Source of the DNA: a virus
Lineage: Duplodnaviria > Caudoviricetes
Length of the DNA: 50,456 nt
IMG/VR virus record: IMGVR_UViG_3300044800_000405
Coordinates: 1 to 50,456 of that record
Direction: 5' to 3' (one strand)
Positions 5,978-32,700 of the stretch are shown here, in pieces. The notes under the pieces were generated by a model, which did no database searches, had not been told where the DNA came from, and worked only from the letters and a program-made list of their open reading frames with translations. Position numbers and translations under genes: made by a program. Numbering within the stretch: position 1 is the stretch's first letter; each line of letters starts with the position of its first letter.

Positions 5978-6579
5978 CTCTGGACAACATCGGCATCATG
6001 TACGGGTGTGATAAAGCCAGTCCCTGGCACAATTACTGTCGCACTTACTCCCACTTCTTTGACCCCTTGCGGGACAGGCCCGTTTTTTTGCTGGAACAAG
6101 GCGTGGCCCAAGGCGCGTCCATCCGCATGTGGTTGGATTATTTCGACCGTCCCCTCTCCCGGTTTTACGGCTTGGATACCAACCCCAACGCTTATCCTTC
6201 CGTTGGCCGTTACCAGTTCATCCAGCAAGACCAGCGCACCGTGGTCTCCCTCCCGCTGCCCGCCTTCGACATCATCATAGACGACGCCAGCCATCATGCC
6301 GAGGATATGCGTCCGGCCTTTGAGGCGCTCTGGCCCAACGTCCGGCCCGGCGGCTTCTACTGCATTGAGGATGTCGCTGTGTTTTGGGACCCGGATTTTG
6401 CCGCCACCGCTCCCGGCCAAAAATGGCTTCTGGACCTGCTGGGCGAGGTAAACCATCACGGCCTTGATTACGTCGGCAAGCCCAAGCCCGTCCCCCAGGT
6501 GCAACTCACGCCCTTGGCCGCCTCCATTGCTTTCATGCACTGCACGCGCGGCCTGGTCATCCTCAAAAAGAAAACATGA
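5974..6579 (+). CDS. Class I SAM-dependent (sugar O-)methyltransferase
   Basis: CDKA...HNY, LLEQGVAQGASIRMW, FDIIIDDASH, VRPGGFYCIEDV motifs. Confidence 0.85.
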   Translation: MTLDNIGIMYGCDKASPWHNYCRTYSHFFDPLRDRPVFLLEQGVAQGASIRMWLDYFDRPLSRFYGLDTNPNAYPSVGRYQFIQQDQRTVVSLPLPAFDIIIDDASHHAEDMRPAFEALWPNVRPGGFYCIEDVAVFWDPDFAATAPGQKWLLDLLGEVNHHGLDYVGKPKPVPQVQLTPLAASIAFMHCTRGLVILKKKT

Positions 6580-7235
6580 ACCCCCAAGCAACCCTGGTCT
6601 CCGCCGTGTTCGGCTGGGAAAAACATTCGGCACCCTGGCGCCAAAACATCCTGCGCGCCCTGCGTAGCTGGCTGGCCCAGGGCTTTGCTGTCGTTTACTG
6701 TTCCCAACCCATCCCAGACCTGCAACTCTCTGCGTCCGTTTCCTTCACCGGCGACAACGATTTTCCCGAAATAAAAAAACTGCTGGACCTCTGCGCCCTC
6801 CAACCCGGTTTGGTTGGTTTGCTGGATGCCGACCTCGCCCTTGGCCCCGGAATTTTCGACGCGCTAAAAATGATTGATGGCACCACCATTGCCCTCTTGG
6901 TTTCCAAGCGTTGGACCTATGACCCGGCCACCGGCATAGTGGCAAACGCCCAAGTGTTGCCAGACGACCATGCCTTCGATTTTTTCCTGGGCGATGCCTC
7001 GCTTTTTTCCGCCCCGGCCCGGCTGATTGGTCCCGGTACTCGTGTGGCTCATAATCTTTGGGACTCCTGGCTGATTGGCTATTTCAACCTCGCCCTTGGC
7101 TCCAAGGTCCGTTCCGCCACCAAATTCCGGTTCTTGTTTCACCCCCGGCATGCCGAGCGCAGCCAGCCCTTTGGCACCGCCGATTTTGTTCACGATAAAT
7201 TTGCCGCCGCCGCCGGCGATCCCGCCGAACTTTAA
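6576..7235 (+). CDS. Putative glycosyltransferase-like protein (paralog of 7608-8249)
   Basis: LLDADL, SKRW, DFF, WDSWL, FHPRH motifs. Confidence 0.55.
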   Translation: MNPQATLVSAVFGWEKHSAPWRQNILRALRSWLAQGFAVVYCSQPIPDLQLSASVSFTGDNDFPEIKKLLDLCALQPGLVGLLDADLALGPGIFDALKMIDGTTIALLVSKRWTYDPATGIVANAQVLPDDHAFDFFLGDASLFSAPARLIGPGTRVAHNLWDSWLIGYFNLALGSKVRSATKFRFLFHPRHAERSQPFGTADFVHDKFAAAAGDPAEL

Positions 7236-8704: not shown

Positions 8705-8914
8705 ATGCGACGACCCAAAGGCATCAAAACCAAAAAGTCCGTGTCCAAGCGGTTCAAAATCACCGCCACCGGCAAAGTCCTGCGCCGCCACGCCGGCAGG
8801 CGCCACCTGGCCCAGACCAAAAATCCCAAGCGCCGCCGCCATCTCCGCCGGGCGGTAATTGTTGACGCCACCGATGCCTGCCGCATCACCCAAAACCTGC
8901 CCTTCCACCACTGA
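8705..8914 (+). CDS. rpmI: 50S ribosomal protein bL35
   Basis: KTKKSVSKRFKITATGKVLRRHAGRRHL..K..KRRR.LR signature. Confidence 0.95.
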   Translation: MRRPKGIKTKKSVSKRFKITATGKVLRRHAGRRHLAQTKNPKRRRHLRRAVIVDATDACRITQNLPFHH

Positions 8915-8954
8915 TTATTCTCTCAACCCTCAACCCTCAACTCTCAACCATTTC

Positions 8955-9329
8955 ATGCGAGTCACCAACGCCGCCGCCTCCCGCAAACGCCGCAAACGCA
9001 TGGTCCGCTCCGCCCTCGGCTTTCGTGCGCGCCGTTCCAAGCTTTACCGCTACGCCTCTGACGCCCTGGATCATGCCCGCCAGTACGCCTACCGCGACCG
9101 CCGCGTAAAAAAACGCGTCTTCCGTTATCTCTGGCAGGTGCGCATCAATGCTGCCGCTCGTGCCGCCGGCCTCACTTACAGCCGGTTTATTGCGGGCCTC
9201 AAGGCCGCCCGGTGCGCGCTCAACCGCAAAATACTTGCTGACCTTGCCGCCACCGACTCCCCCGCCTTTGGTGAACTCGTGAACATCGCCCGAAACGCTG
9301 GGACAAACCCCAATAAACCCCCGGTATGA
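8955..9329 (+). CDS. rplT: 50S ribosomal protein bL20
   Basis: MRV...RKRRKR...GF...RSKLYR...YAYRDRRVKKRVFR.LW..RINAAAR..GLTYSRFI.GLK....LNRKILADLA; ATG at 8955. Confidence 0.96.
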   Translation: MRVTNAAASRKRRKRMVRSALGFRARRSKLYRYASDALDHARQYAYRDRRVKKRVFRYLWQVRINAAARAAGLTYSRFIAGLKAARCALNRKILADLAATDSPAFGELVNIARNAGTNPNKPPV

Positions 9330-14977: not shown

Positions 14978-15217
14978 ATGAGCGAACCGTCCACCGCCAG
15001 CATACCGGCTTTGCCTGCATTTTTGCCCAATCCGCGCGGCATTCCCGTGGCGCCCTTTGCCATGCAAAAAATTCTCACCAAGGCCATTCGCAGTCACAGC
15101 GCCAATCAAAACCTGCGTTCCACCGCCGTCAAGGGGCCGGATAAAATGGGCGGCAAACGCGGCAGCGGCAAATCCAGCCGGGCAGGCGCCCGCGCCGCCG
15201 GCGCCGCCAAAAAATAA
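14978..15217 (+). CDS. Small basic hypothetical protein
   Basis: 79 aa, K/R/G/A-rich tail, downstream of divergent promoter. Confidence 0.5.
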   Translation: MSEPSTASIPALPAFLPNPRGIPVAPFAMQKILTKAIRSHSANQNLRSTAVKGPDKMGGKRGSGKSSRAGARAAGAAKK

Positions 15218-15269
15218 ATCCCACACCATCATGTTTCAGCCCTTAGCCTTTAGCCTTTAGCCTTTTTTT

Positions 15270-15410
15270 ATGCCTCCCCTGCCTTCACCTGCCGGCGCCT
15301 GTGGCACCCCGCAAAAAACGGTCAACCAGCAGCCCGTCTTCGACCGCCGCCTGCGCGTCCACCGCCCGCGCAAAAAGAAAGGCCGTGGCTCCCAGCCCAA
15401 GTTTGTATGA
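15270..15410 (+). CDS. Small basic hypothetical protein (46 aa)
   Basis: MPPLPSPAG...RRLRVHRPRKKKGRGSQPKFV*; T-rich leader as in neighbouring genes. Confidence 0.45.
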   Translation: MPPLPSPAGACGTPQKTVNQQPVFDRRLRVHRPRKKKGRGSQPKFV

Positions 15411-15449
15411 TCCATCTAACTTTAGCATTCAGCCTTTAGCCTTTTTCCC

Positions 15450-15719
15450 ATGACCCCCCGCGAAAAATTCCGCCAGGACCGTTCTCTCACGCGCGGTTAC
15501 AACGACCTCATTGGCGGCACTCAAATGCAGGCCGCCCTTGACGCTGCCGAGTTGGAGCTGGACCGCCTGGTTGTCACCACCGGAGACGTTTCTGCCGCCG
15601 CCGCGCACCGCTGGCGTCGTGAAGGCGCCAACTGGTTCCGCCAGATTTTGGAAAACCTGAACGCCTCCATCATTCCCCTCACCACCAAAAACACCGGCGC
15701 GCTTGACCACAAAGCATAA
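15450..15719 (+). CDS. Small helical phage protein upstream of scaffold
   Basis: 89 aa with RREGA motif; position typical of podovirus head modules. Confidence 0.6.
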   Translation: MTPREKFRQDRSLTRGYNDLIGGTQMQAALDAAELELDRLVVTTGDVSAAAAHRWRREGANWFRQILENLNASIIPLTTKNTGALDHKA

Positions 15720-15761
15720 CTAATATGTTTCAGCCTTTAGCCTTTAGCCTTTAGTTTTTTT

Positions 15762-17072
15762 ATGGACGCCCCTACCACCACCGCACCCGCACCCAGCACC
15801 CAGCCCAACCCGCCCGGCCCCAACATGGCCGAATCCTTTGCCGGCTTCGATGCCCTCGTGGCCGCCCCCGAATCTTCTCCCTCGCCCCCCGCAGGGGGAG
15901 AGGGCCGGGGTGAGGGGCAGGCATCCGACGCTCAACCCTCAACCACCAACCCGCAACCACCAACCAAGCCCGCCCCTGACACCAAACCGACAGACGAAGG
16001 GAAGCCCCCCTCAACCCTCAACCCTCAACCCTCAACCAAGCCCGCCAAAGCCGCCACCCTGCGCGAAGAACTCGACCGCACCCGCACCGAAGCCGCCGAC
16101 TGGCGCGGCAAGTACGAGAAATTGCAGGCCGACCTTTCCAAGCCCAAACCAGACCCGGAAAAGGATCAGCTCCTCAAAGACCGCGAGACCTGGAACAAAT
16201 CCCGCGCCGATCTTGAAAATGAACTCAAGTTCGCCAACTACGAGCGCAGCCAGGAATACAAAGACAAGTACCAGCAGCCATTTTTGAAAGCCTACGAGTC
16301 CGCCCAAAAACTCGTCAGCGCCCTTACCGTCAAGGAACCGGATCAGAAAGACCAGTACGGCGAAGTCACCGAGCCGGGCAAAACCCGCAAGGGCACGGAG
16401 GCAGATTGGGACGCCCTCATGGCCATCACCGACGAGAACGCCGCCAGCGAATTCATTGCCGAACATTTTGGCCACTCCGCCGCCCGCGTCACCGTCCTGC
16501 GCGACAAGGTCCTGGACCTTCACGGCCAGATGCGCGCCGCGGTCGAGGACTTCCGCAAGCAGGCCGGCGAGCGCGAGACTCAAATGCGGGGCACCCTGGA
16601 AAAACAGCAGAAAGAAATCAGCACCCGCTGGCACGCGGCCAACGCCCATGCCGCCCAAAAGTATCCGCAGTATTTCGCGCCCGACCCTGCCGACCCCAAG
16701 GCCACCGCCCTGTGGGAGGCCGGCACGCGCCTCACGGACCTCGCCTTTGGCGTGCTGGACCCTGCCGATGTTTCCAAGCTCCCGCCCGCCATCCAGTCCA
16801 AGTTTGTCAACGGCCAGTTGCCGCTCGCTGACCGCACCTTGTTGCACAGCGCCATCCGCAACCGCGCCGCCGCCTACGACCGCCTCGTTTACAAGCTCGC
16901 CATGAGCGAGGCCGCCAAAAAGGAACTGGCGGACAAACTGGCCGGCTTTGAAAAGTCCGAGCCGGGCCGGGGCCAGGCCCGCAAGGTCGAAACTTCCGGC
17001 AAGCCAGGCACGCCCTCCACCCTGGACGAGGTGGATTCCGCCTTCGACCAACTCGCCGCTGCCAACGGCTAA
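15762..17072 (+). CDS. Putative capsid scaffolding protein
   Basis: Pro-rich disordered N-terminus, long coiled coil, 436 aa. Confidence 0.5.
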   Translation: MDAPTTTAPAPSTQPNPPGPNMAESFAGFDALVAAPESSPSPPAGGEGRGEGQASDAQPSTTNPQPPTKPAPDTKPTDEGKPPSTLNPQPSTKPAKAATLREELDRTRTEAADWRGKYEKLQADLSKPKPDPEKDQLLKDRETWNKSRADLENELKFANYERSQEYKDKYQQPFLKAYESAQKLVSALTVKEPDQKDQYGEVTEPGKTRKGTEADWDALMAITDENAASEFIAEHFGHSAARVTVLRDKVLDLHGQMRAAVEDFRKQAGERETQMRGTLEKQQKEISTRWHAANAHAAQKYPQYFAPDPADPKATALWEAGTRLTDLAFGVLDPADVSKLPPAIQSKFVNGQLPLADRTLLHSAIRNRAAAYDRLVYKLAMSEAAKKELADKLAGFEKSEPGRGQARKVETSGKPGTPSTLDEVDSAFDQLAAANG

Positions 17073-17121
17073 AACCAACCATTATGTTTCAGCCTTTAGC
17101 CTTTAGCCTTTAGCCCTTTTT

Positions 17122-17370
17122 ATGAACCACCAGGAACAATTCCAAAATCGCATCACCGATGCCGTCAACAAAGCCGCTGCCAACGCGGTCCATCCCGCCA
17201 TCATTTACATGGTCCTGGGCGGCATTCAACAGGACGTGCTTAATTCCGTCCGCGCCGCCAACCGCGCCGCCGCCGCCCCTCCCTCGCCCCCCGCAGGGGA
17301 AGATGGCCGGGGTGAGGGGCGGGAAAATTCTCAACCCTCAACTCTCGACTCTCCACCCCCAGCCAATTAA
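17122..17370 (+). CDS. Hypothetical protein (C-terminus built from REP and heptamer repeats)
   Basis: 82-aa ORF after T-rich leader. Confidence 0.55.
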   Translation: MNHQEQFQNRITDAVNKAAANAVHPAIIYMVLGGIQQDVLNSVRAANRAAAAPPSPPAGEDGRGEGRENSQPSTLDSPPPAN

Positions 17371-17371
17371 A

Positions 17372-17854
17372 ATGCGCCCCGCCACCGGCAGTTTTTGGTA
17401 TCGCCTGTTGTTCCCCAAACGATCCCGAATCATTTCCGCCTACATTCACTCCATGAATGTTGCTTTGGCAGACACCTATGATTACGTTGTGGGAGATAAA
17501 CCTTGGCCGAATGGGTTGCAAACATTGTTGAATGTCGGTGCGGCGGACCTGTCCGCCAAAGCGTTCAACGATGTTTGCATCCGCTTGGTTGACTTTTTTA
17601 AGAATCCACACACCGACAATGGGTTGTCAGGTTCTTGGCAGGAAAACTCGCCCTATAAAAAATCCACGACCTCCTTTTTTATTCCCTGGGAAACCGACCC
17701 CAATCCTCTGTATCCCATGCTGCCAGACAAGCAGGTGCTGCCCTTTCTGCGCTACTGCAAGAAATACCAGTTGAGCATCACCCCTCTTTACAACGCAGCC
17801 TTTGAAGCCAGCCGCTTTCTCTCAAACTTGCCAACTGTTTGTTATGAACGATAA
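17372..17854 (+). CDS. Hypothetical protein, lower GC
   Basis: ATG at 17372 directly after upstream stop. Confidence 0.55.
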   Translation: MRPATGSFWYRLLFPKRSRIISAYIHSMNVALADTYDYVVGDKPWPNGLQTLLNVGAADLSAKAFNDVCIRLVDFFKNPHTDNGLSGSWQENSPYKKSTTSFFIPWETDPNPLYPMLPDKQVLPFLRYCKKYQLSITPLYNAAFEASRFLSNLPTVCYER

Positions 17855-18179
17855 ATGCCCCCACCTGATCCCCCTGCTTGACCGTGTCATCATCGAGCCG
17901 ATTGCCGGCCCGGAAAAAATCGGCGCCATCTTCGTGCCCGACCAGGCGCGGGAGAAGCCGGATACCGGGCGTGTGCTCGCGCGCGGCCCTGGCCGCGTGT
18001 CCGAGCACGGCACCCGCATTCCCATGTCCGTTGAGGTGGGCGACCAGGTGGTTTTCAACCGCTACTCCGCCAGTCAAATCCGGGTGGCTGGGCGCGACCT
18101 CTGCCTGGTCCACGAGTCCGATATTAACTGCATCGTAAAAACCCCCTCCACCCTCAACCCTCAACCCTCAACCAAATAA
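17844..18179 (+). CDS. groES: Co-chaperonin GroES (Cpn10)
   Basis: LIPLLDRVIIEP...GAIFVPDQAREKPDTGRVLARGPGR....G.RIPMSVEVGDQVVFNRYS...LVHESDI. Confidence 0.92.
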   Translation: MNDKCPHLIPLLDRVIIEPIAGPEKIGAIFVPDQAREKPDTGRVLARGPGRVSEHGTRIPMSVEVGDQVVFNRYSASQIRVAGRDLCLVHESDINCIVKTPSTLNPQPSTK

Positions 18180-18180
18180 C

Positions 18181-18471
18181 ATGCACTACCGAAACGGCAA
18201 AGAAGCGCACGATGGCGACCCCGTCATTGGCCAGACCTACAAAAACTCCGGCGTCGTCATTGCCGGCAAAATTCACAGCATCAATCCCGGTCAAAACACC
18301 TGCAACTGCACCGTGGCCGTTCCCGTCATGGGCGGTGTCGAGCACCTGTCCTGCCGCAACGTGGATGAATTCTACTCCGCTGCCGATGCCTTCGCCGCCA
18401 TGGAGCAGGCCCTGCGCTGCCCGGCGGTGGAAGTCCCGCCTCCGCCCGCGCCAACTCCCAAATTCTTGTAG
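18181..18471 (+). CDS. Hypothetical protein
   Basis: MHYRNGKEAHDGD.V...G.....PG..TCN. Confidence 0.65.
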   Translation: MHYRNGKEAHDGDPVIGQTYKNSGVVIAGKIHSINPGQNTCNCTVAVPVMGGVEHLSCRNVDEFYSAADAFAAMEQALRCPAVEVPPPPAPTPKFL

Positions 18472-18481
18472 CCGCATGTGG

Positions 18482-18500
18482 CACAGACCTCTGGTCTGTG
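18482..18500. promoter_or_regulatory. Perfect palindrome (operator-like) within putative tRNA promoter
   Basis: CACAGACC-TCT-GGTCTGTG; TGGCAC-17 nt-TATCTT overlaps it. Confidence 0.55.
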
Positions 18501-18522
18501 TTATCTTTCGCAAATTCATCGG

Positions 18523-18597
18523 TGCGGGGTAGAACAGTGGTAGTTCGGCAGCCTCATAAACTGCTTGTCGGTGGTTCGATTCCACCCTCCGCAACCA
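18523..18597 (+). tRNA. tRNA with CAT anticodon (Met, initiator-like body), CCA encoded
   Basis: Cloverleaf: TGCGGGG/CTCCGCA acceptor, GAAC/GTTC D-stem, CTCATAA loop, GGTGG-TTCGATT-CCACC T-arm, ACCA end. Confidence 0.92.
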
Positions 18598-18610
18598 CTT
18601 TATTTCCGAC

Positions 18611-18638
18611 TTGACCCTGTCTGCTGGTGGTGTAAATT
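18611..18638 (+). promoter_or_regulatory. Promoter of the Cas12f-like gene with GCTGGTGG in spacer
   Basis: TTGACC 18611-18616, GCTGGTGG 18623-18630, TAAATT 18633-18638. Confidence 0.6.
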
Positions 18639-18647
18639 CCCGCCACC

Positions 18648-20141
18648 ATGAGAATGTCCCTAAGAAAGCATCGCCGTGTGCGGGCCAGCGCCGCCAAAAC
18701 TCAACGCCGCTACATGCGGCTGGCGGCGAAGGTGGTTAAAAATGTTTTTGTCCCGGCCCAAAAAGGAACCCCCCTGGGACCACCCGCCCCACTGGTCCAG
18801 AAACTTCCCCTGCCCTCGTCCGTCGCGCCTTCCGTCCCTGCCGTCCCTTCGGCCACCCCCGCGCCCGGAAAAAGTTTGGTTTGCAGCCAGTGCGGCACCG
18901 CCCCCAAAACCCCCCTTATCGGCCGTCTCCCGCGCGGGTGGAAAAGGATGGAGGCCGAGGTCGTCTGCCCCAAATGCTGGCATGACAAGTTTTTCCTCCG
19001 CGCCATCACCTTTGCCGTGTCCGGCCCCATCGTAAAAGAGGACTGGCCGGCCTTGCGTGAAGCCTTGCAGGCAGGCTGGGCGCAATCCACCCGGCTCTGC
19101 AACTGGGCCGTTACCGAACTCGCCAAGGCCGATGTCACCCGCCAGCCAGACATGGCCAAACTGCCCAAGTTCGCCCTGCCGTATTTATACCCGCCCGCGC
19201 GCAAGTTGTTCCCCGGCCTGGCCAGCCAAACGGTCGTGGCCCTGCTCAACACCGTCCAGCGCAAGTATGCCCAGACCCGCTTTGAACGCATCTGGCTTGG
19301 GAATGTCTCCCTGCAAAGCTACAAGTACCCCGTGCCCGTGCCCGTGCCCGCTGCCGGCTATTCCTGCGAACTGATGAAGCGCGGGCCGGACCGCGTGCCC
19401 GTTGTCCATCTGCGCATCGGCGACCAGCGTTTTTCCTTGTTATTGCGTGGCGGCGTTGAATGGGCGCGCCAGTTACATGACTTCACCCAAGTGGTGCATG
19501 GCCACGGTTTGCAGTGCGAGGCCGCCATTGGCCGGCGGCGCGTGACGGACTCCGATACCTGGAACGGCGTGGCCGAGCGTCAGGCCGGCGGCGGCCAGCG
19601 CCAGCATTACCGCATCATGCTCAAGTTGGTTGCGTGGCTGCCCCGCAAACCTGTTGGCAAAAAACAGAAACCCAAAAACCTCACCTTGAATACCGGCCAA
19701 GACTTTTTCTGGCAGGCTGTTCTGGATGGCGGCCAGCCTTGGATTTTACATGCCGATCATGTCCGGGGCTGGGTGTTAAGCCATGCCCACCGGCTGCAAC
19801 ATTGGAGTGACGACCAGAAGTTTGAGCACCGGCGCAACGCGCGGGCGCGGCAGCCCCTTAACGAACACCGCGCAGCGGCGGCGCGCAAGCAAAACGACCG
19901 GCTCGATACTTGGTGTCATACTGCCGCTGCGCTTTTCACCCAATGGTGCTCCCGCCAGCGTGTAACACGGGTGCAATATGATGAAACCGGCGGCCATTTT
20001 CTTGAAAGTTTTCCTTGGCACCGGCTTAAAACCCTGTTACAAGAGAAACTGAACGTGGCCGGAATTGACTTTGCCGAAGTTGCGAGCGCCACAGTGCCGG
20101 AGGAATCCAGCACCAGCGCTCGCCAAAAGACAAAGTCCTGA
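18648..20141 (+). CDS. Cas12f-like type V effector, predicted nuclease-dead, with N-terminal zinc finger
   Basis: By-eye alignment to AsCas12f1 motifs (GNVSLQSYKYPVP ~ GDMSIPSYKRDIP; KNLTLNTG ~ KIMGIDLG; RVQYDET ~ TIQMEDL; FPWHRLKTLLQEKLNVAGI ~ WTYYDLQQKIIYKAEEAGI); adjacent CRISPR array. Confidence 0.8.
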   Translation: MRMSLRKHRRVRASAAKTQRRYMRLAAKVVKNVFVPAQKGTPLGPPAPLVQKLPLPSSVAPSVPAVPSATPAPGKSLVCSQCGTAPKTPLIGRLPRGWKRMEAEVVCPKCWHDKFFLRAITFAVSGPIVKEDWPALREALQAGWAQSTRLCNWAVTELAKADVTRQPDMAKLPKFALPYLYPPARKLFPGLASQTVVALLNTVQRKYAQTRFERIWLGNVSLQSYKYPVPVPVPAAGYSCELMKRGPDRVPVVHLRIGDQRFSLLLRGGVEWARQLHDFTQVVHGHGLQCEAAIGRRRVTDSDTWNGVAERQAGGGQRQHYRIMLKLVAWLPRKPVGKKQKPKNLTLNTGQDFFWQAVLDGGQPWILHADHVRGWVLSHAHRLQHWSDDQKFEHRRNARARQPLNEHRAAAARKQNDRLDTWCHTAAALFTQWCSRQRVTRVQYDETGGHFLESFPWHRLKTLLQEKLNVAGIDFAEVASATVPEESSTSARQKTKS

Positions 20142-20260
20142 ACGGCAGTATTTTGAGTGACCGATACACTCAGCGCGGTTGCGCCTTGGTACGCTTGCCG
20201 GCCCTGGCTCTCGCGGAACACCGTTTAAGTAGCGGGGATTACGCTGTTTACAGCCCGGCC
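20082..20260 (+). promoter_or_regulatory. Putative CRISPR leader / scaffold RNA region
   Basis: Lies between effector core and repeat 1; inverted repeat GCGAGCGC (20082-20089)/GCGCTCGC (20116-20123); degenerate repeats are at the opposite end of the array. Confidence 0.5.
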
Positions 20261-20869
20261 CCCGCAGCGACTAAAATTAAAGCTGTCGGCTTCGGGGGTT
20301 CCGTGTCAAACCGTTGCTTCTTTTGCCAGAAAGCCCGCAGCGACTAAAATTAAAGCTGTCGGCTTCGGGCGATGTCTTGTAGCGAAAGAGTTTAACACCC
20401 GACTCCCGCAGCGACTAAAATTAAAGCTGTCGGCTTCGGGAGTGTCCTGAAATAATTCCACGAGGTCGAAAGCCCCCCGCAGCGACTAAAATTAAAGCTG
20501 TCGGCTTCGGCTTCGCACCGCGAAATCAAGAAGCTGGACAAGCCCCCCGCAGCGACTAAAATTAAAGCTGTCGGCTTCGGGCGCACGCCGTTTGTGGAGA
20601 GCCGAACTGAATTCCTGCCCGCAGCGACTAAAATTAAAGCTGTCGGCTTCGGGGTGAAACGCGATGTTGACACCGGCAACAAACTTATTCCCGCAGCGAC
20701 TAAAATTAAAGCGGTCAGCTTCGGGTCGCCACCAGTAGAGAGTTTTGGAGAGGAAGAAATCCCGCAGCGACTAAAATTAAAGCGGTCGCCTTCGGGTTGC
20801 CTGTTGGGTTGACAGGATGACCACAACCCGCCACCCGCAGCGACTAAAATTAAAGCGGTCAGCTTCGGG
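20261..20869 (+). CRISPR. CRISPR array: 9 x 36-bp repeats (CCCGCAGCGACTAAAATTAAAGCTGTCGGCTTCGGG), 8 unique spacers of 34-37 bp
   Basis: Repeats start at 20261, 20334, 20405, 20476, 20546, 20618, 20690, 20761, 20834; repeat 4 ends in C; repeats 7-9 carry substitutions; orientation inferred. Confidence 0.97.
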
Positions 20870-20886
20870 CTTACAATCACAGATTC

Positions 20887-22728
20887 CTAAAACGTCAGCG
20901 CATGTTGCTTCCGTTGCTCCCGCAACTTGTCCTGCCGTTTCATAAACCAGTCCCAGGTGGAATTCTCCGCCGGCACATCCGCGCCCAGGCGTTTGATCTT
21001 GAACCCGCGTTGCCGCGCCCCTTCCAGCGCAATCGCCAGCCAGTCAAACAGGTCCGGGCTTTTGCCCATCCGCTCCTTGAGTTCATCCTTCGGCTCCACT
21101 TCAATCTTGTCGCCCGCCACCGTCTTGTACTCGCGCCAGCAGCCCTCGGCCATCACGTCCTCCGGCAACTCTCGCATCTGGCCGCTCTCTATCGTCTCCC
21201 GCACGCTAAACCACATCTCCGTTATGAACTTGCTGTAATGTTCCTCGCACCGTTTCAGCCGGCGCCGCCCGTCCTTTTCAGCTACCCATAAATCCCAACG
21301 CACGGGCCGCGTCGTCGTCCGCGCCCCGGCGTCCACCGGCACCGGCGGGTTAAAGCCAAACTTCCGCGCAAAGGCAAACCCCACCGTCCCCTTGCCGAAT
21401 GAATCGTAAAAACAATTGTCCGGCGCTATCCCGTTGGCTTCCAAATCCTCCTTCACCAGGTCCGCTATCTGGTCTTCCGGCGGCAGGGCCGGGTTCACAA
21501 TTATTTTCAATATGCGCGGCGGGTTCACCCGCAAAATCTGCGTGCCCTCGGCACTCTCCCCAAACTCTATCCATCCGCCCACGCAGCGGTCCCCGCCGCC
21601 ATAGGCCGGGTCCACGCTGTAAATGCGCGGGCGCGGTTTGCCCGCCCACACCGCGCGCTCGTGCGCCCCGTGCAGCCGGCACAATTGCCGGGTTATCACG
21701 CGCGAATGTTCCAGCCCTATCCGCATCCGGCCCATGATTTGCGTCTCATACTCCGGCGAGTTTTTCCCGTAATCATGCGCGATAATCCGCTCATAATCGT
21801 GCCCAATCAGTCCCTTGTATTGGTCTTGTGGCTGGTCAAAGTTCGGACTGTCCAGCCCAATCAAATTCACGCACACCCCGCCCAGCAGTTTGATGGGCCA
21901 CACCTGCGTCTTTTCCAGCCCGTCCACCGCCGGCCAGCCCTCCAGCGGCTCGCCCACAATGCCCAGTTGATCGTTCGGGTCGTGGCGCGGATTCCCGCTC
22001 CCAATCACCTTCAACCCGCCCGCGCCCGTGTTGCTCCGCATGTTTGGCAGGCAGCCCAGGAACGTCGGCGCCATGAACTGCAATTCGTCGCACTGAAACC
22101 GGAACCGTTTTTGTTTTATCCCCGCAAAGTTCCCCAGCCCCACCCATTGCTTGCCCACATAGCACGCCTTGCAGAAAATTCCCTTGCGCAGGTCCCGCGC
22201 GTCCTCGCTGTCGGCGGCGCGGTCGTCCGTCGCAATGCGCTGTTTGTATTCAATCAAGTGTCCCGCCAGCCAGGAATAATTTTCCCGGCCCGCCTTCCAT
22301 AAACTTTTCATCTCGCCCCACACGGCGTCTTCCAGTTTGTCCTTGGTCGTGCTGCTCACCAGCACCGCCGTTTCATCCGGGTAACACCAGTAATCAATCA
22401 GGCTGAACTCGCTCGCGTGGCTCGTCTTCTGGCTCGAAGCCGCCCCCATCAAAATCGTGATGCTGTTCTTGATTATCTCCCGGTAAATCAACTCGCTCCA
22501 ACGGTGGCAGTAACGGTCCGGCCAGATCAATTTGCGCGCGTTCAAATAATGCCGGAGCAACTCGCCTTCCCCCTCAGACTGTGGACTGTGGACTGTGGCC
22601 TCTGGACTGTGGACTGTGGACTGTGGACTCAAGACTTTTTTCCACGTCCTCCGTATCATGTTAAACTCCACGGCCAGCGCATCCGGTTTGCGCTGCCATT
22701 TCTGCCCGTATTGGTCCTCGTAAATCAT
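20887..22728 (-). CDS. Terminase large subunit
   Basis: Walker A-like MGAASSQKT, Walker B FQCDE, GSGNP, RNase H-like SVDPAYGGGDRCV and KSPDLFD. Confidence 0.85.
   Translation of the reverse strand: MIYEDQYGQKWQRKPDALAVEFNMIRRTWKKVLSPQSTVHSPEATVHSPQSEGEGELLRHYLNARKLIWPDRYCHRWSELIYREIIKNSITILMGAASSQKTSHASEFSLIDYWCYPDETAVLVSSTTKDKLEDAVWGEMKSLWKAGRENYSWLAGHLIEYKQRIATDDRAADSEDARDLRKGIFCKACYVGKQWVGLGNFAGIKQKRFRFQCDELQFMAPTFLGCLPNMRSNTGAGGLKVIGSGNPRHDPNDQLGIVGEPLEGWPAVDGLEKTQVWPIKLLGGVCVNLIGLDSPNFDQPQDQYKGLIGHDYERIIAHDYGKNSPEYETQIMGRMRIGLEHSRVITRQLCRLHGAHERAVWAGKPRPRIYSVDPAYGGGDRCVGGWIEFGESAEGTQILRVNPPRILKIIVNPALPPEDQIADLVKEDLEANGIAPDNCFYDSFGKGTVGFAFARKFGFNPPVPVDAGARTTTRPVRWDLWVAEKDGRRRLKRCEEHYSKFITEMWFSVRETIESGQMRELPEDVMAEGCWREYKTVAGDKIEVEPKDELKERMGKSPDLFDWLAIALEGARQRGFKIKRLGADVPAENSTWDWFMKRQDKLREQRKQHALTF
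22576..22629 (-). repeat. (CCACAGT)n heptamer array in frame within terL
   Basis: GGACTGT units on +; encodes SPQSTVHSPEATVHSPQS. Confidence 0.85.
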
Positions 22729-22876
22729 GGCTGGCTTCCCCCTCTCCTGGGGGAGAGGGCCGGGGTGAGGGCGGTCGTAAACATTTTTTTCAGCCTTTAG
22801 CCTTTAGCCTTTAGCCTTCTCCTACCCTGCCCCTTGCGCATTACATTTTCAACGGTAACGTTAAAAATAAAGCATT

Positions 22877-23902
22877 ATGAGTATTCCAAGCGATTGTTGC
22901 TCTCCCTGTCCTTCTGTCACCGCCGTCAACGTCCCCGGAGTCCCCGGCGCCAACGGCAATAACGGCATCAACGCCTTCACCACCACTTTGGGCGTCATTA
23001 CCCTGCCCATTCCCCTGGCCAATGTCGGTCCCATTGCTGTTGCCAATTCCAGTTGGCTGACCCCCGGCCAGAGCGTCGTCGCCAGCAGCGATGCCTCCCA
23101 TGTCGGCACCTTCCGGGTCGTATCCGTCTCCACCGGCTTTGTCACCCTGCAATGGCTGGCTGCCACCGGAGATTCCGCGCAGGCCACGCCCATTCCCATT
23201 GGTGCCACCCTTTCCCCGTCCGGCGCTCCTGGCCTTTCCAGTTTTGGGGTTCTAGCCGTCACCTGTTTTGCCACTGCCGGCGCCTTTGCCTTCACGCCCA
23301 ACCCCAATGCCACTGCCCTTTATGTCGAGTGCATCGGGGCCGGCGGCTCCGGCGGCGGCGGCGGCTCCACCGCTGGTGATGCTTCCCTCGGCTCCGGCGG
23401 CGGCGGCGGCGCTTATTCCGCCGTGTTCCTCACCCCCATTTTGGCCACTTACTCCGGCATCGTGGGCGCGGGCGGTGCGGCCCCTGCCCCCGGCAACAAT
23501 CCCGGCATCCTTGGCGGCTTTACCAGTTTCATCGGCAACGCCTCCAATCTTTGTCTGGCCAACGGCGGCGCAGCGGGCGCGGGCGGCGGCGCCCCAGGCA
23601 CCACAGCCCTGTTAATTCTCGGCGGCACGGGCGCCTCCGTGGCCGGCGCTGTCGGTGATCTCGTGATGGATGGCGACGACGGCGGCATTAGCAATCGCGT
23701 CTCCGGCACGGTGGGCAGTTCGGGCCGGGGCGGCAGCGGGCCTTTTTCCGGCGGTTCCTCCAGCCTCATCGCCCAGGGCAACGGCAATACGGGCGGCCAG
23801 TACGGCGGCGGCGGGTCCGGCGGCAATACCCTGAATGGCGGCGCGGCCACCTCCGGCGGCGCCGGCGCCGATGGCCTGGTCCGCATCTGGCAGCTTGGTT
23901 GA
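22877..23902 (+). CDS. Glycine-rich tail fibre-like virion protein
   Basis: VECIGAGGSGGGG...GGGGGAYS...YGGGGSGG...GADGLVRIW Gly-rich domain. Confidence 0.75.
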   Translation: MSIPSDCCSPCPSVTAVNVPGVPGANGNNGINAFTTTLGVITLPIPLANVGPIAVANSSWLTPGQSVVASSDASHVGTFRVVSVSTGFVTLQWLAATGDSAQATPIPIGATLSPSGAPGLSSFGVLAVTCFATAGAFAFTPNPNATALYVECIGAGGSGGGGGSTAGDASLGSGGGGGAYSAVFLTPILATYSGIVGAGGAAPAPGNNPGILGGFTSFIGNASNLCLANGGAAGAGGGAPGTTALLILGGTGASVAGAVGDLVMDGDDGGISNRVSGTVGSSGRGGSGPFSGGSSSLIAQGNGNTGGQYGGGGSGGNTLNGGAATSGGAGADGLVRIWQLG

Positions 23903-23916
23903 TTCAAGAGCCTCCC

Positions 23917-26445
23917 ATGCCCAACCCCGTTTACGACTTCATTGGCAGTTTCAAGGATGGCATGAATTCGGGCATTGACCCCCTGCTCCTGCCCAAGACC
24001 CAACTCGCGTTTGCCTCCAACGGCACCCTGCGCGGCGACTTTTTCCAAACCCGGCCCGCCACGCAACAACTTGACCTGGCGTATGTCGCGCCATCTGTTC
24101 AAACCGATTTCCAAACCGGCCTGTTTCAGGGCGCCGCTTATTACAAGCCAGATGCCGGCCCGGAGGCCCTCGCCTTGCAAATCGGTGGCTGCCAATTCCT
24201 GGCCACCCCGGATTCCAGCGGCAATGCCCTGGTGCAGGAAATCACCATCCCCGGAGACCCTGATTCCGCCGCCCAGCCCCAAGCCTGGATTTGCCAGGCG
24301 GAAAACTTTCTCATCTTCAACGATGGTCTGGACCTCCCGGTGTTTTACGATGGCGCCACCAGCCGGCGGTCCCTGGGCGCCAGCCAGCCCCTGGGCACAG
24401 TCAACGCCGCCGCTTCCGCGCCGGCCATCGGCAGCACGACGGCCTTGCAACTTTTAGCCGACTACACCGGGCCGCTCAATCAGCCCATCTTCATTGGCAC
24501 GGCCATTTATGTTGTCACTGCGGTCGGCGGCTCAGGGGTCGCCTACTCTGTCGAACTGCAAACCCTGTATGACCCGGACACCAGTCACCCCGCCGGGACC
24601 CCCTTGTATCGGAAGGCCGCCCAAATTGGCGAGGCACAGGCGGTGTTCAATCCCATCATTCCCAATCAGCCGGTGGGCGTCGTCACCTTTGAACTCGTCG
24701 GCACCACCATTCCCACCAATGTCGGTGTGGGAGATTCCATTACCCTGTCCAACCCCACCGTTCCCCCCTCAGACCCCAGCTTGCAAACCATCAAAACCAA
24801 TGTGTTTGCCATCAACAAGCCGTCCCGCACCCGCATGGCCCTGGTCTTTTTCAGTTCCGCCGCGCGCACTGCCGCCACCACCGGCCTCTGGCTGGCCTCC
24901 CTTACCGGCGGCGGCGCCGTCACACAACAGGGAACCGTGGCCGTGGGTTTTTCTGTGCAAACCAGCGGCACAGACATCACCGTGGACCTTGCCTCCAATT
25001 TCAAAGGCTATGTGGGACAGATTATTTGGATCGGCAACGGCCAGTACCAAATCGTTTCCATCACCAACCTTGCCCCCATTCCCGACCTCAACATCACCGT
25101 CGAAAATATAACCGATACCCTCGGCACCAAGCTGCTCAACCTGCCCTTGACCACCCTGCCCGAATTGCCCGCCGGGCGTTCCCTGTGTTACGGCCAGGGC
25201 CGGGTGTGGGAGTCCATGATTGATGGCTTGAGTTTTCTGGGTGGAGACATCGTCAATGGCACCTCCGGCTCGCCGGGCTACAATTACCGCGATGCCGTCC
25301 TGCGCGTTACAGAAAATGACTCCATTGCCGGCGGCGGTTTGTTCCGCGTGCCCGGCAGCGCGGGCGACATCAAGGCCATGCAGTTTTGCGCCCTGCTGGA
25401 TGCCTCCCTGGGCCAGGGTCCGCTCCAGATTTTCACCCCCAACTGTGTATTCAGTTGCCAGGCCCCGGTGGACCGTTCCACCTGGGCCGCGCTCACCAAT
25501 CCCATCCTCACCCAATCGCTCATCGGCGCCGGCGGCGTGGCGCAAAATTCCGTGTCCCTCGCCAATGGCGACATTCTCTTTCGCTCCTCGGATAGCCAGA
25601 TTCGGTCCCTGCTCATGGCGCGGCTGGATTTCAACCGCTGGTCCAACACCCCCGTCAGCCGCGAAATGGCCCGCGTTTTGGACCAGGAAGATTCCACCCT
25701 GCTGGCTTACTCCACCTCTGCGGTTTTCGACAACCGCTTTTTGATGGGCGCCGGGTTGACTTCTTCCAACCGGGGCGTTTTTTCCCCATCCCTCATCGCC
25801 CTGAACTTTGACCCCGTCAGTTCCCTGCGCGGGGCCGATACCACCATTTATGACGGCCAATGGTCCGGCCTGAACGTGTTGCAACTCGTCAGTGGTTTTT
25901 TCAGCGGCGTGTCCCGTTGCTTTGCCGTTTGTCTCTCCACCGATCTCACCCAGATTGAAATTCACGAAATTTTGCCCTCGTCCGGCCCGGCGTCTTTGAC
26001 CCTCGATGATGGCGTCACAGCCATCACCGCTGCCTTTGAATCGCCCGTGCTGGATTTTGGCGACCGCCGCTCCGGCGCCCGCACCTACAAGCGCCTCCAG
26101 TACGGTGAAATCTTTGTGGATAACATCACCGGCCCCGTCACGTTCCAGGCTTTTTACAAACCCGACCAATGGCCCAATTGGGTCCCGTGGTATTCGTGGA
26201 CCCAGTCCTACTCTCAACCCTCAACTCTCAACCCTCAACTGCCTTCTGATCCGGGCTTTCGTCCCCGCGTCGGTCTGCCCATGCCGGACGGCACCGTGTT
26301 TGACACCGTGAACAACCGTCCCTTGCGCGAAGGGTTCACTTTCCAATTCCAACTCGTCGCCACCGGCTCCTTCCGTTTTCTGGGCGCGCGTTTTTCCGCC
26401 GACCTCATCCCTCAGCCCGAATTCGCCGTCCCCGTTTCTCCCTGA
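23917..26445 (+). CDS. Putative tail tubular B / DNA stabilisation protein (T7 gp12 / P22 gp10-like)
   Basis: About 840 aa, beta-rich; F.DGMNS..DP start; precedes adaptor and ejection genes. Confidence 0.6.
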   Translation: MPNPVYDFIGSFKDGMNSGIDPLLLPKTQLAFASNGTLRGDFFQTRPATQQLDLAYVAPSVQTDFQTGLFQGAAYYKPDAGPEALALQIGGCQFLATPDSSGNALVQEITIPGDPDSAAQPQAWICQAENFLIFNDGLDLPVFYDGATSRRSLGASQPLGTVNAAASAPAIGSTTALQLLADYTGPLNQPIFIGTAIYVVTAVGGSGVAYSVELQTLYDPDTSHPAGTPLYRKAAQIGEAQAVFNPIIPNQPVGVVTFELVGTTIPTNVGVGDSITLSNPTVPPSDPSLQTIKTNVFAINKPSRTRMALVFFSSAARTAATTGLWLASLTGGGAVTQQGTVAVGFSVQTSGTDITVDLASNFKGYVGQIIWIGNGQYQIVSITNLAPIPDLNITVENITDTLGTKLLNLPLTTLPELPAGRSLCYGQGRVWESMIDGLSFLGGDIVNGTSGSPGYNYRDAVLRVTENDSIAGGGLFRVPGSAGDIKAMQFCALLDASLGQGPLQIFTPNCVFSCQAPVDRSTWAALTNPILTQSLIGAGGVAQNSVSLANGDILFRSSDSQIRSLLMARLDFNRWSNTPVSREMARVLDQEDSTLLAYSTSAVFDNRFLMGAGLTSSNRGVFSPSLIALNFDPVSSLRGADTTIYDGQWSGLNVLQLVSGFFSGVSRCFAVCLSTDLTQIEIHEILPSSGPASLTLDDGVTAITAAFESPVLDFGDRRSGARTYKRLQYGEIFVDNITGPVTFQAFYKPDQWPNWVPWYSWTQSYSQPSTLNPQLPSDPGFRPRVGLPMPDGTVFDTVNNRPLREGFTFQFQLVATGSFRFLGARFSADLIPQPEFAVPVSP

Positions 26446-29740: not shown

Positions 29741-32700
29741 ATGCTGGTACAAGTTCCAGAAGTCGGCCAGTTGGATTTCCCGGATGATGCCAAACCGGAC
29801 GAAATCCTCTCCTTCCTCAACGAGAAGTATCCCAAATCTGCCGCCCCCGCCCCGCCCGCCGAAACTCTTAGCGAGTGGAAACCTGGCGTTGCCGACCGCC
29901 TGAAAATGGGTCTGGGCGAATTGGCGCAAACCACCCCCTACCGCACCGCCGCCCAAATTCCCGGACTCATCAAAAAAGAAACCGGCGAGCTGGGAGAATT
30001 TACCAAAGCCCTTTTCGGTAGAAACGAACAACGCCCCCTGCCTCCCTCACCGCTGGCCGGCACCCGCTTTGCGCCGGAAAATGTCCCTTCGGGCGCGGAA
30101 CTTTCGCGCGATACCGGCCTGCCGTCCGCCGTCACCGAGACCGCCAGCGCCGTGGATAAAATCGTGGCCGGTCTGGCCCAGTTTATCACCTCGCCGCAAG
30201 GCGCGGTGCAAATGGCCACTTATGGCGTCCCCGTGCTCAAGCTGCCCATGGCCGCCAAATGGATTTCAGACATGGTCAAAGGCGGCTACCTGAACATCAA
30301 AGACGCCGTTGATGCCTTCCAGAAGGGCGACACCCAGCGTTTGCGCGACAACATCATTGGGGCCACCGCCAATTTTGTCGGCGCCCTTGGCGTTGGTGGT
30401 GGAGAAATTAAAAGCCTGAAAGATTATTTCAACCGCCTCGACTCGCCACAAACCGTCACCCCGCCCGCGTCCCGCGAAGCGCCCGCGCCCATGACCGCGC
30501 GAGACGCCACTGTTCCGCCCGTCAATTTGTCTCCCGTGCTGGCCGGCGCCGGTTTGCCGCCGGTTCAAGGCCCGCCCGCGCGTGGTGATGTTTTACCCAT
30601 GCCGCAAGGCGCTCAACCACCCCTTTTGAATCCAGAACAGCGCGCACGAGTAGCGGCTAAATTAAAAGCCGCTTGGGCAGAACGGGAAACTCCCGCGCCC
30701 AAAATTCCACTCTCACCAGAAGCCGCCGCAAAAGGTGAAACCTCCATTGAATCACCCTTGCCCTCTCAGGTATCTCCCGAATTATCTGCCGCTCTTTTGG
30801 CTGACGGGTTCAAACCAGAAGTGGCGAATTGGACAGATGAAGATTTTGCAAAAGCCGGCTGGCCTGCTGCCTTTAAATTAAGAGTCAAAAAAATCATAGC
30901 TCAACATCAAGGAGAACCAAATGCCCAAACAATACGAGGAAATACGGGACAGCTACCTCCGCCGGGGCAAGTCCCCCCAGCAAGCCAAGAAACTGGCGGC
31001 CATGACGTGGAACGCCCGGCACCCGTCCAACCCCAACCCCTGGACCCACGAGAAACAAAAGCCGGTCAAGTACCACTGACGCCGCTCGACCAGATTAAAA
31101 AAATCTCGGCCATGTCCGGCCCGGATTTTGTCCAGCACATCCGCGACCAGAATAACCCGCAAGCCCTCACCCAAAACGCCTACGATTTGGGATTGAGCCT
31201 CACCACCCCCGAAGAATTGGCCGCCCTCAAAAAAGCCCAAGCCGACAATCAAGCCGCCCTTAACGCAGCGGATAAAGCCGGCGATAAAGAGTTGGCAAAC
31301 AATCTGGCATGGAAGGGCCACCTGTTTGGCGAAGCCATCGGGGCCGCCACTGGCACCGGCAGCGCCGGGCGTTATCTCCAACAAGCTGATCCGAATTACA
31401 AGGCGCGCTTCCCGGATGAACCCACCGTTCCGGCCATGTTGACCGGAGAACCTATCCAACAGACGGCGGAAGGCGCCTGGTATCAAGACAAGGCAACCGG
31501 CATTAAATTTCTTGAGACCGATCTGGACCCCAAAACCCTCTCGCTCTCGCCGGACGTGCCCAATTTCAAACGCGGGGCCAGCACCGAGACTGGGGAGGTC
31601 CCCGGCCAGGAATTGCAGGGGGCCTACACCCGCATCAACACCGGGCGCGCGATGGTCTATGAACGGCTAAACGGAACCAGGGAGGTCATCACCGGGCGCC
31701 ATCGCTGGCAGCTTGCCTTGCGTACCAATGCGGACCTTCCCGTGCAACTCGTGCGCGAGGCGGACGGCTTTACCAAGGAACAAGCTTTGGTGATGGACGC
31801 CGAGGCCAACATCAAGGATAATCAAGGAGACGTATTTGACTATGCCCACTACTTCCGTGAAACCAAAGAAGCTTACACCGAAGAAACGGCGAGACGACGC
31901 GGCCTACTCCGCCTTGCTCCGGGGCGTCACGGCTGGGCACTTGGCAAAAACGCCGGTCCTGATCTCTATGCCCTCTGGCGAGACAATAAAATCGCCACCG
32001 AAAAAGCCGTTGCCATAGCCCGTGCCGCTCCTGGCAATGCCGACCTGCAAGCCTTGGGCATCAAGCAGGCGTTCAAGGGCGGCTCCCCGTCCGAGATTGA
32101 GAACTTCATCAAGGCCGTCCAATCGCAGACCGGCGGTGGCGCGTCTGAGCAGGTTGACCTTTTTGGCAGCCTCGAAGCTGGCGAGAAATTTCAGTCCAGC
32201 CCAACGGGTTCCAGTGAAGTGCTGGGCAACTTTTCCAAACTCAAAGACGCCCGCGCCCTCGCGCAAAAAACCGGCGGCAGCGTCAAGGGGTATTTGAATG
32301 GCAAATACAAACGCGGCTGGGTCGTCAGCAAATTCGTTGAACCACCAGAAGTCGCCGCGCCGGCTTCCCCCTCTCCTGGGGGAGAGGGCCGGGGTGAGGG
32401 CGGTCAACCCCCCGCCGCCCCCGGCGAACTTCTCCCCGCCGCCGAGCAACCCTTCAACCTGGTCGGTGAGAAAACGAAATTCGTTGAACCAAAGACCGAG
32501 CAAACCGCCTTCGGTGGCGAGACCCTTACTCAAAACGAACTGTTCGCCATTCAAGACGTGGTTCAGAGCAAGGACCCGCAAAAATCCGCCGATGTCATGC
32601 AAAAACGATTCGGCGCAGCCCAAGCGGTTAAGATTTTGGAGAACCAGCTCGCCGTCATGGCCAAGGACCCCAAATCGTACAAGGGTTACACCAAACCCCA

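Follow-up and report, generated by a model that had tools for sequence, protein, structure and literature searches.

What would a bacteriophage gain from a Cas12f-like protein that has lost its nuclease site and is followed by a CRISPR array of its own? The question is raised by a locus at positions 18,648 to 20,869 of the IMG/VR record IMGVR_UViG_3300044800_000405, a single viral contig of 50,456 bp (58% G+C, listed CheckV completeness 93) that was analysed at its full length and is called the window below. An earlier note, made from the letters alone, had read a 497-amino-acid (aa) open reading frame (ORF) and a nine-repeat array 119 nucleotides (nt) past its stop codon as a dead effector with several guides, and had suggested a distinct natural system akin to CRISPR interference (CRISPRi). 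Both the frame and the array are real. Our analysis suggests that the locus specifies RNA-guided DNA binding without cleavage, probably for silencing, and that it forms a self-contained accessory module of the phage; we give this reading a probability of roughly 0.68. The features on which it is built are the following.

18648..20141, plus strand: ORF of 497 aa and a stop codon, the first 76 residues being probably untranslated or non-conserved
18876..20141, plus strand: probable true coding sequence, 421 aa from a TTG start, for a nuclease-dead, C-terminally truncated Cas12f-like protein (alignments, profile and model)
18882..18977, plus strand: N-terminal zinc-finger-like CxxC...CxxC motif (C79, C82, C107 and C110 in ORF numbering), ahead of the Cas12f-like core
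19689..19691, plus strand: codon of N348, the residue aligned with the catalytic Asp of RuvC-I (hidden Markov model (HMM) alignment to 9nzq, GVDMG, and 9i8y, GVDLG)
19980..19982, plus strand: codon of D445, the residue aligned with the catalytic Glu of RuvC-II (HMM alignment to 9nzq, IQMED)
20152..20260, plus strand: structured scaffold RNA, resembling a trans-activating CRISPR RNA (tracrRNA) or omega-RNA and abutting the first repeat (covariance model R2)
20261..20869, plus strand: array of nine 36-nt hairpin repeats, start-to-start spacing 70-73 nt
20297..20833, plus strand: spacers S1-S8, 34-37 nt, between the repeats
20870..20905, plus strand: candidate ninth guide past the last repeat, assigned by position only and overlapping the 3' end of the large terminase gene (terL)

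The first point to settle is what the protein is. Alignments to relatives start at query residues 77-79, and the 76 residues upstream are not conserved even in an 82%-identical homologue (P0003), so that translation probably starts at TTG 18876, a start overlooked in the earlier note; the 497-aa frame exists, but the conserved protein probably measures 421 aa. Single-sequence searches returned weak matches (PF07282, E 0.096; Cas12f1 9i8y, E 0.65). The effector is matched by 27 clusters at 90% identity, and by 859 representatives of 50%-identity clusters at E <=1e-3 (374 at E <=1e-30), the best 150 of which encode proteins of 267-580 aa. When a profile of 140 members was run against the PDB, it recovered OsCas12f (9nzq, E 3.9e-15), 9i8y (E 7.6e-11), AsCas12f (about E 1e-9) and dCas12f (9n9c, E 1.5e-8), and no Cas12m chain. 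PADLOC gave weak Cas12f/Cas12u3 matches in 6 of 7 members. None of 40 family members reached the Pfam cut-offs, the TNB zinc ribbon was found in none of them, and PF07282 aligns, below its cut-off, over its first 23-24 positions only.

The predicted structure is more telling. The AlphaFold model made on the 140-sequence alignment has a mean predicted local distance difference test score (pLDDT) of 93.8 and a predicted template-modelling score (pTM) of 0.87, and Foldseek lists nothing but Cas12f and dCas12f in its 15 best rows (lowest E 1.7e-16, TM 0.60-0.66). With VIA-align, AsCas12f 8dzj aligns over 335 residues at Z 25.3 and a root-mean-square deviation (rmsd) of 4.6 Å, and the dCas12f of the Fta system (9n9m) over its whole 365-residue chain (1-365) at Z 23.9 and an rmsd of 3.6-3.7 Å. 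Nuclease-active Cas12f chains range from Z 25.3 to 16.6, TnpB chains from 16.0 to 17.5, Cas12k stands at about 15, and Cas12m2, at 12.4-13.4, lies well under the Cas12f rows. Sequence identity to Fta dCas12f in the structural alignments is 11-12%. By the model, then, the WED-REC-RuvC core belongs to the Cas12f/TnpB fold superfamily of type V effectors, a likeness that had been drawn by eye and that the fold comparison bears out. The structural matches begin at model residue 31-40; residues 1-35 precede the matched core and carry the CxxC...CxxC motif, whose four Cys columns are kept in at least 90% of the 140 sequences (C107 is Cys in 131/140 and C110 in 130/140).

Can such a protein cut? In Cas12f-type enzymes the RuvC catalytic residues sit at strand ends. 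In the model N348 lies at the end of strand 268-272 and D445 at the end of strand 365-369. The protein reads LTLNTG at the first site (N348) and QYDE at the second (D445/E446), and its C-terminus falls 19 residues past GIDFAEV, exactly as the earlier note had it. The same loss runs through the relatives. Among the 140 aligned sequences the RuvC-I column holds R 66, K 19, T 14, S 12, A 4, H 4, Q 4 and N 3, D and E being absent from these eight commonest residues, and the RuvC-II column holds D 102, N 11 and E 5. The tail past the last RuvC strand has a median length of 21 residues and a maximum of 50, and the RuvC-III strand is absent in 140/140. By alignment, the phage protein has lost two catalytic residues out of three together with its entire C-terminal zinc-ribbon/RuvC-III part, and the zinc ribbon and RuvC-III are missing across the whole family. 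A recent pseudogene of an active gene was considered and rejected, because the RuvC-I substitution and the truncation (140 sequences) run through the family, as does the association with a guide RNA (57 of 58 sources), and the family is large and conserved.

The second component is RNA. The earlier note had measured the gap between the stop codon (20141) and the first repeat (20261) correctly at 119 nt, but it had missed that the gap holds a conserved structured RNA (20152-20260), and it had equally missed the hairpin nature of the repeats. The distance from stop codon to first repeat is 111-129 nt in 20 of the 33 listed loci, with a mean column identity of 63% over this stretch. Model R2 scores 87.3 bits in the window (E 2e-21) and matches (E <=1e-7) 57 of 58 related sources, on the gene strand and just 3' of the gene, array-less loci included. 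Pairing in the four scaffold helices reaches 89%, vs 27-41% in slid controls, with compensatory change in 15 of their 16 pairs; the observed values were reached by 0 of 500 shuffles. The 3' end of the scaffold (…GCC) directly adjoins the first repeat. Rfam has no family for either scaffold or array, and an anti-repeat longer than 10 nt was not found in the window (longest match 10 nt). In the array-less loci the scaffold is followed by one hairpin and then by unique sequence, which is, judging from this layout, a natural single-guide RNA. In several loci the full scaffold occurs in two to three tandem copies (L081 595-958, L083 3061-4367, L072 837-2050, L064 4152-4863 and L011/L054/L087); these copies replace hairpin arrays or accompany them, and presumably each has a guide to itself.

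What replaces the repeat in this arrangement is a hairpin. The window repeat pairs with itself (minimum free energy -11.8 kcal/mol), and the repeats of the relatives, which differ in sequence, are all hairpins of about 36 nt. Across 26 loci the stem is 82.6% paired, vs 30-45% in slid controls, with compensatory change in 12 of 13 pairs. G-U pairs outnumber A-C mismatches 39 to 14 in the hairpin, which favours transcription on the gene strand. The last three repeats of the window carry substitutions, and the leader end is therefore placed on the scaffold side. Since single-hairpin relatives hold their sole guide at a position equal to window 20870..20905, the array is counted as carrying eight or nine guides. 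At least two repeats are present in 28 of 60 non-redundant relatives, and the array and single-guide states do not cluster on the protein tree (20 changes vs a mean of 20.1 for shuffled labels), a result from a quick tree on which many 'single' labels come from short contigs. Two further observations concern the repeats themselves. The TAAAAT of the repeat loops produces three sigma-70-like promoter matches inside the array (window 20323-20562, plus strand), which are probably chance since the loop sequence is not conserved in relatives. In L005 (5273-5579), L016 (6359-6490) and L061 (about 4000-4110) there are half-repeat arrays consisting of the 3' arm of the hairpin only (e.g. GGAAGCTGCGGG), spaced short and irregularly.

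What would the guides address? Perfect matches were found in two relatives. In locus L085, on an Acidobacteriota metagenome-assembled genome (MAG, G001), spacers 3 and 4 each match 36/36 nt elsewhere in the same genome. One protospacer falls within a 214-aa ORF belonging to an element that has integrase, HTH_17 and DnaB genes, the other within an Xre-type helix-turn-helix (HTH) gene of a second integrase-rich element, 63-98 nt upstream of a PD-(D/E)XK nuclease gene. The L086 contig is a phage whose major head gene adjoins the effector gene, and its spacer 1 has a 37/37-nt match 7.6 kb away on that contig, in an intergenic region between divergent genes; a scan found no sigma-70-like promoter at this self-target. 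Such perfect matches within one genome are consistent with a protein that binds without cutting. On their 5' side these three protospacers are flanked by TTT, TTC and TGC, and from these three sequences the 5' protospacer-adjacent motif (PAM) is probably T-rich.

Other matches are of lesser weight. The L092 guide matches 23/25 nt in a divergent intergenic region (E 0.0155), which we retain as a lead only. MAG G001 has a second array at the start of another contig (C11:1-658, L094/L095), 92% identical over 513 nt, which may be a second copy or a strain variant. A 27-nt match at 96% between L055 (1736-1762), 3' of its array, and a site near an integrase gene beside L085 (6296-6322) may mark an attachment site or a target.

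The third element of the argument is the way in which the locus sits in the phage. The carrier is a soil phage, with genes for a large terminase, tail fibres, GroES, a replication initiator and a VRR-NUC nuclease (PHROG/Pfam), and the locus is bounded as follows.

18598..20887, between tRNA-Met and the 3' end of terL: accessory cassette of gene, scaffold RNA and array (blastn against related phages)
18523..18597, plus strand: tRNA-Met (CAT), left border of the cassette (ARAGORN; Rfam RF00005, 59.3 bits)
18611..18638, plus strand: promoter-like site TTGACC-16-TAAATT at the left end of the cassette (9/12 matches in a consensus scan; a pattern match only)
20887..22728, minus strand: terminase large subunit (terL), right border of the cassette and a neighbour outside the system (phrog_2, E 3.4e-12)

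A related terminase is encoded in 13 viral loci, none of which matches the scaffold model R2 (0/13). Window 15000-24000 was compared by blastn with the seven closest of them, whose terL genes are 75-83% identical to that of the window at the nucleotide level. None of the seven has a match of 80 nt or more to window 18598-20887; in their conserved gene order GroES, with the tRNA or without it, is followed at once by the end of terL. The stretch corresponding to window 18378-18597 is joined directly, in L136 and L137, to that from window 20888 onward. Because of this empty junction and of its absence from all seven closest phages, the 2,290-bp segment 18598-20887 is best read as an accessory insertion. 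It has no flanking or terminal direct repeats longer than 7 nt, and terL ends 18 nt past the last repeat, on the opposite strand. Gene and scaffold recur with zero differences in contigs from three sequencing runs with the label peat metagenome, and array fragments in these runs show the same spacers as the window. One contig of run X2 shows, ahead of a repeat, 30 letters that the window array lacks (at window 20261), which may be an extra spacer in the population.

Cas1 (PF01867) and Cas2 (PF09827), the mark of an autonomous adaptive CRISPR-Cas system, were not found in six-frame searches of the whole 50,456-bp record, in which positive controls were detected, and neither was Sigma70_r2 (PF04542). 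Among the 35 window ORFs of at least 150 aa, shorter ORFs lying outside the scan, no Pfam match to Cas4, TnpA, Tns, sigma factor or integrase was obtained. The earlier note's statement that the window holds no cas1, cas2, cas4, tnpA, tns or sigma-factor gene thus agrees with these searches.

From the observed fold, the loss of the catalytic site, the structure and strand of the scaffold and hairpins, the cassette borders and the perfect spacer matches in two relatives, the following course of events can be proposed. The gene-strand transcript would consist of a scaffold of about 110 nt, then nine 36-nt hairpins, with a guide after each. The first unit of scaffold, hairpin and guide would act as a natural single-guide RNA, while some RNase would release the later hairpin-plus-guide units for loading alongside the scaffold. 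Like Cas12f, the complex would probably form an asymmetric dimer and bind guide-matched double-stranded DNA beside a motif that is probably T-rich and 5'. Once bound it would stay there and block transcription or replication of the target, which would amount to a natural multiplex CRISPRi. By analogy with the relatives, its targets would be mobile elements that share the cell with the carrier, or promoters of the carrier itself. For binding, silencing, RNA processing, the dimer and the PAM, we rely on homology to Cas12f/dCas12f and on the tolerated self-matches.

Several points weigh against this proposal. The processing of the array without a RuvC site and the gain of spacers without Cas1-Cas2 are left unexplained by it, and so is the D389-x-K391-x-E393-x-R395 motif, which is kept in 126-137 of the 140 relatives. 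Acidic residues near the old catalytic site are also kept (D445 in 102/140, D352 in 86/140). Moreover, the window spacers have no target in their own contig (longest exact match 11 nt), in INPHARED phages, PLSDB plasmids or any of the fetched loci, or in 401 Planctomycetota genomes. In the five MAGs carrying relatives the best spacer match was 84% over 43 nt (E 0.0018) and was judged chance, and one 26-nt stretch of S1 has no match in IMG/VR. The 401 Acidobacteriota genomes gave one 28-nt match and no target; that match was rejected as a target, as it spans the repeat and 10 nt of spacer. Self-matches occur in one of the five phage records tested (L086), and in none of the window, L015, L014 and L004. 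Finally, in the sigma-E system the truncated RuvC face is the docking site of a partner, according to the part of the study that describes it (10.1101/2025.06.10.658880), and plain repression is therefore not the sole option.

This last point leads to the rival that survives best, although we hold it to be unlikely: that the protein is a recruiter and not a roadblock. The exposed face of its truncated RuvC domain would dock, where the guide leads it, some factor of the host or of the phage (for instance a sigma factor, RNA polymerase, recombinase or nuclease), and the docked factor would start transcription or another reaction, as dCas12f does with sigma-E. The conserved D-x-K-x-E-x-R motif and the N-terminal zinc finger speak for it, and so do two loci: a Sigma70_r2 protein follows the L006 array (5994-6857) and an HTH_17/Sigma70_r4 protein lies near that of L005 (6024-6560). 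However, these proteins are not conserved across loci, and no other partner gene is conserved across the loci of the relatives; the six frames of the window hold no Sigma70_r2, and the cassette that moved contains the protein gene and RNA genes only. As for the targets, two of the three perfect ones lie inside ORFs of rival elements and one is intergenic, which suits blocking at least equally well.

That the target is nonetheless destroyed seems to us quite improbable. Destruction could proceed through a rearranged active site using D445 and D352, through cutting of RNA or single-stranded DNA, or through handing the R-loop to a host nuclease. The conservation of these two residues would be in keeping with it, and rearranged RuvC sites that may stay active are listed by Altae-Tran et al. 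(PMC10691335) in the part of that work that deals with them. Yet the RuvC-I position is mostly Arg or Lys, no relative retains a RuvC-III strand, and the closest solved truncated form, dCas12f, is presented as nuclease-dead in the relevant part of its description. Perfect 36-37-nt matches on the same genome or contig persist, besides, in L085 and L086, which a cutter would not tolerate.

A very improbable possibility is that the guides serve the spread or maintenance of the cassette itself, by RNA-guided homing or by choice of an insertion site, in the manner of TnpB or Cas12k. The discrete 2.29-kb insertion beside a tRNA gene, absent from 7/7 close phages, would accord with it, as would the array and single-guide states, scattered on the tree with as many changes (20) as shuffled labels give, and the integrases that often adjoin the relatives. 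Against this, neither the cassette nor the window has a transposase, Tns gene or integrase (Pfam, ORFs of at least 150 aa), the insertion lacks terminal repeats and no guide matches the flanks of its own insertion site; furthermore, TnpB homing needs cutting, of which this protein should from its sequence be incapable. That the array is a decoy, imitating the CRISPR repeat of a host and so titrating its Cas proteins, or else that the locus is a decaying relic without function, is hardly credible: solitary phage repeats that inhibit host CRISPR are known (from the section on them in the review PMC11656645) and the last three window repeats are degenerate, but 57 of 58 sources conserve the protein along with scaffold and hairpin, in which the changes are compensatory, the contigs of three sequencing runs show no difference in gene or scaffold, and where repeats 7 and 9 deviate, the substitutions lie in the predicted loop and bulge.

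Non-cleaving, guided binding being the reading that we prefer, how new is it? The closest precedent is a putative dCas12f cluster next to CRISPR arrays, with some guides at promoters of resistance-nodulation-division (RND) efflux genes, which Hoffmann et al. 2026 (PMC13472631) mention briefly, with a Chitinophagaceae example and without experiments, in the passage that concerns it. As there described, its members are likewise Cas12f-like, C-terminally truncated, predicted to be dead and located by CRISPR arrays with a covarying guide-RNA region 5' of the array, and the efflux link recurs here in three relatives. Carriage by a phage, the cassette insertion, repeats that are hairpins fused to a scaffold, the N-terminal zinc finger and spacer matches to mobile elements are, as far as that passage extends, described here only. 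The family resembles the Hoffmann cluster, in a comparison made by description that does not prove them to be one clade. Beyond PMC13472631, we found in the literature no description of a phage-borne, array-linked dCas12f.

The dCas12f-sigmaE system of Bacteroidota (Fta dCas12f, 9n9c/9n9m) is the best end-to-end structural match, at the Z of 23.9 given above; it is truncated in the same way after the RuvC-II region and has its guide RNA encoded just 3'. It differs in several respects. The sigmaE system has an operonic extracytoplasmic function (ECF) sigma factor with a C-terminal extension, with or without an HTH protein, and no such rpoE or HTH partner was found in the phage locus; the latter has a multi-spacer array instead of one fixed guide, and its protein is phage-borne, carries an extra N-terminal CxxC...CxxC and shares 11-12% identity. 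Nuclease-active Cas12f (V-F; AsCas12f 8dzj/7wju, OsCas12f 9nzq, Un1Cas12f1 7l48) has the same fold and miniature size, an array adjoining the gene and, probably, a similar T-rich 5' PAM (n=3 here). In contrast, the phage protein has its RuvC-I Asp replaced, Asp for the RuvC-II Glu and neither TNB zinc ribbon nor RuvC-III, and its repeats are self-complementary hairpins, with no anti-repeat above 10 nt in the window. Inactivated Cas12f and V-U branches are also listed by Altae-Tran et al., in the relevant part of PMC10691335.

TldR proteins are reported to be RNA-guided repressors, some of them on temperate phages, including prophage fliC-associated ones (Wiegand et al. 2024; Walker et al. 2026, as cited in the corresponding part of PMC13622181). 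In the features given there, they too are short proteins with a dead RuvC whose guide RNA is encoded immediately 3' of the gene, and the single-guide members of our family are similar in layout. Unlike our family, which often has arrays, TldR descends directly from TnpB and has one fixed guide, and the phage protein is closer to Cas12f than to TnpB (Z 25.3 vs 17.5 and 16.8). No fliC or oppF gene was present among the neighbours examined.

Cas12m (V-M) is likewise, in the accounts that cover it, a compact type V effector that does not cut double-stranded DNA. It is a weaker structural match (Z 12.4-13.4), and it is a full-length protein of about 600 aa with a non-canonical RuvC triad. It works with CRISPR RNA (crRNA) alone, without a scaffold RNA. 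It blocks transcription without cutting double-stranded DNA, is found on plasmids and some prophages and takes part in competition between elements, according to the section devoted to it in a review (PMC11656645).

The earlier suggestion of a distinct natural CRISPRi-like system is supported in the main: the system is, by its sequence, dead, array-guided and without a partner, but its distinctness is weakened by the array-linked dCas12f cluster and the phage TldR already in print, as far as the relevant parts of those articles go. It is real and coherent, but not categorically new. Its significance is tempered by the published nuclease-dead Cas12f, TldR and Cas12m repressors as well as by that cluster. 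If the reading of guided binding without cleavage is right, the protein would still be a compact natural DNA binder, 421 aa and about 150 nt of RNA, with many guides and on a phage, and it would offer a ready-made small dCas for CRISPRi tools. Mobile elements of soil would then routinely use programmable silencing, and not cutting, both as a weapon and as a means of control, and the perfect spacer matches to integrated elements of the same genome would show directly that elements are in conflict with one another without damage to DNA. The layout of scaffold plus hairpin also bears on how omega-RNAs, tracrRNAs and CRISPR repeats interconvert.

Where else does the system occur? The family is large and mostly on mobile elements. 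The nearest ESM-Atlas clusters are 64-78% viral, integrases are frequent neighbours, and cellular genomes carry it rarely (1/301 sampled Acidobacteriota and 2/301 Planctomycetota, query genomes included). A well-supported clade is of another kind: L036, L046, L088 and L089 are chromosomal or unclassified contigs with a single guide. Three of the four (L036, L088 and L089) stand directly behind AcrB-type RND efflux genes, and all four have in common, immediately past the hairpin, a guide of about 14 nt (ATCGnAATCArrG). Location and shared guide fit a fixed regulatory target, such as Hoffmann et al. proposed for their array-linked cluster. For the L089 guide no convincing match was found, and a 17-nt match of the L088 guide inside a TIM-barrel ORF was judged chance, the promoter of the efflux operon lying outside the sequence reached. 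Taking these relatives together with the phage locus, we advance tentatively, and with rather more doubt than belief, a wider picture in which the mobile elements of soil bacteria trade a 2.3-kb multiplex CRISPRi plug-in. In it a hairpin would replace the repeat:anti-repeat duplex, units would multiply behind one scaffold without Cas1-Cas2, rival prophages or integrative elements and the carriers' own promoters would be silenced, and bacteria would have domesticated single-guide copies as regulators of efflux operons.

Some features of the window outside the cassette may be recorded. The gene just 5' of it (17802-18179, plus strand) encodes a GroES co-chaperonin (PF00166, E 4.1e-22; phrog_3188) and is kept in related phages. 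A 7-nt tandem repeat, CCCTCAA, is present in 4.3 copies at window 18144-18173, and Pro/Ser/Thr-rich peptides (e.g. PSTLNPQPSTK) recur in the ORFs at 15762-17072, 17122-17370 and 17802-18179. Farther away, a 2,042-aa ORF at window 29741-35869 (plus strand) has no PHROG or Pfam match, and a homologue of ribosomal protein L20 is encoded at window 8859-9329 (plus strand; PF00453, E 2.5e-36).

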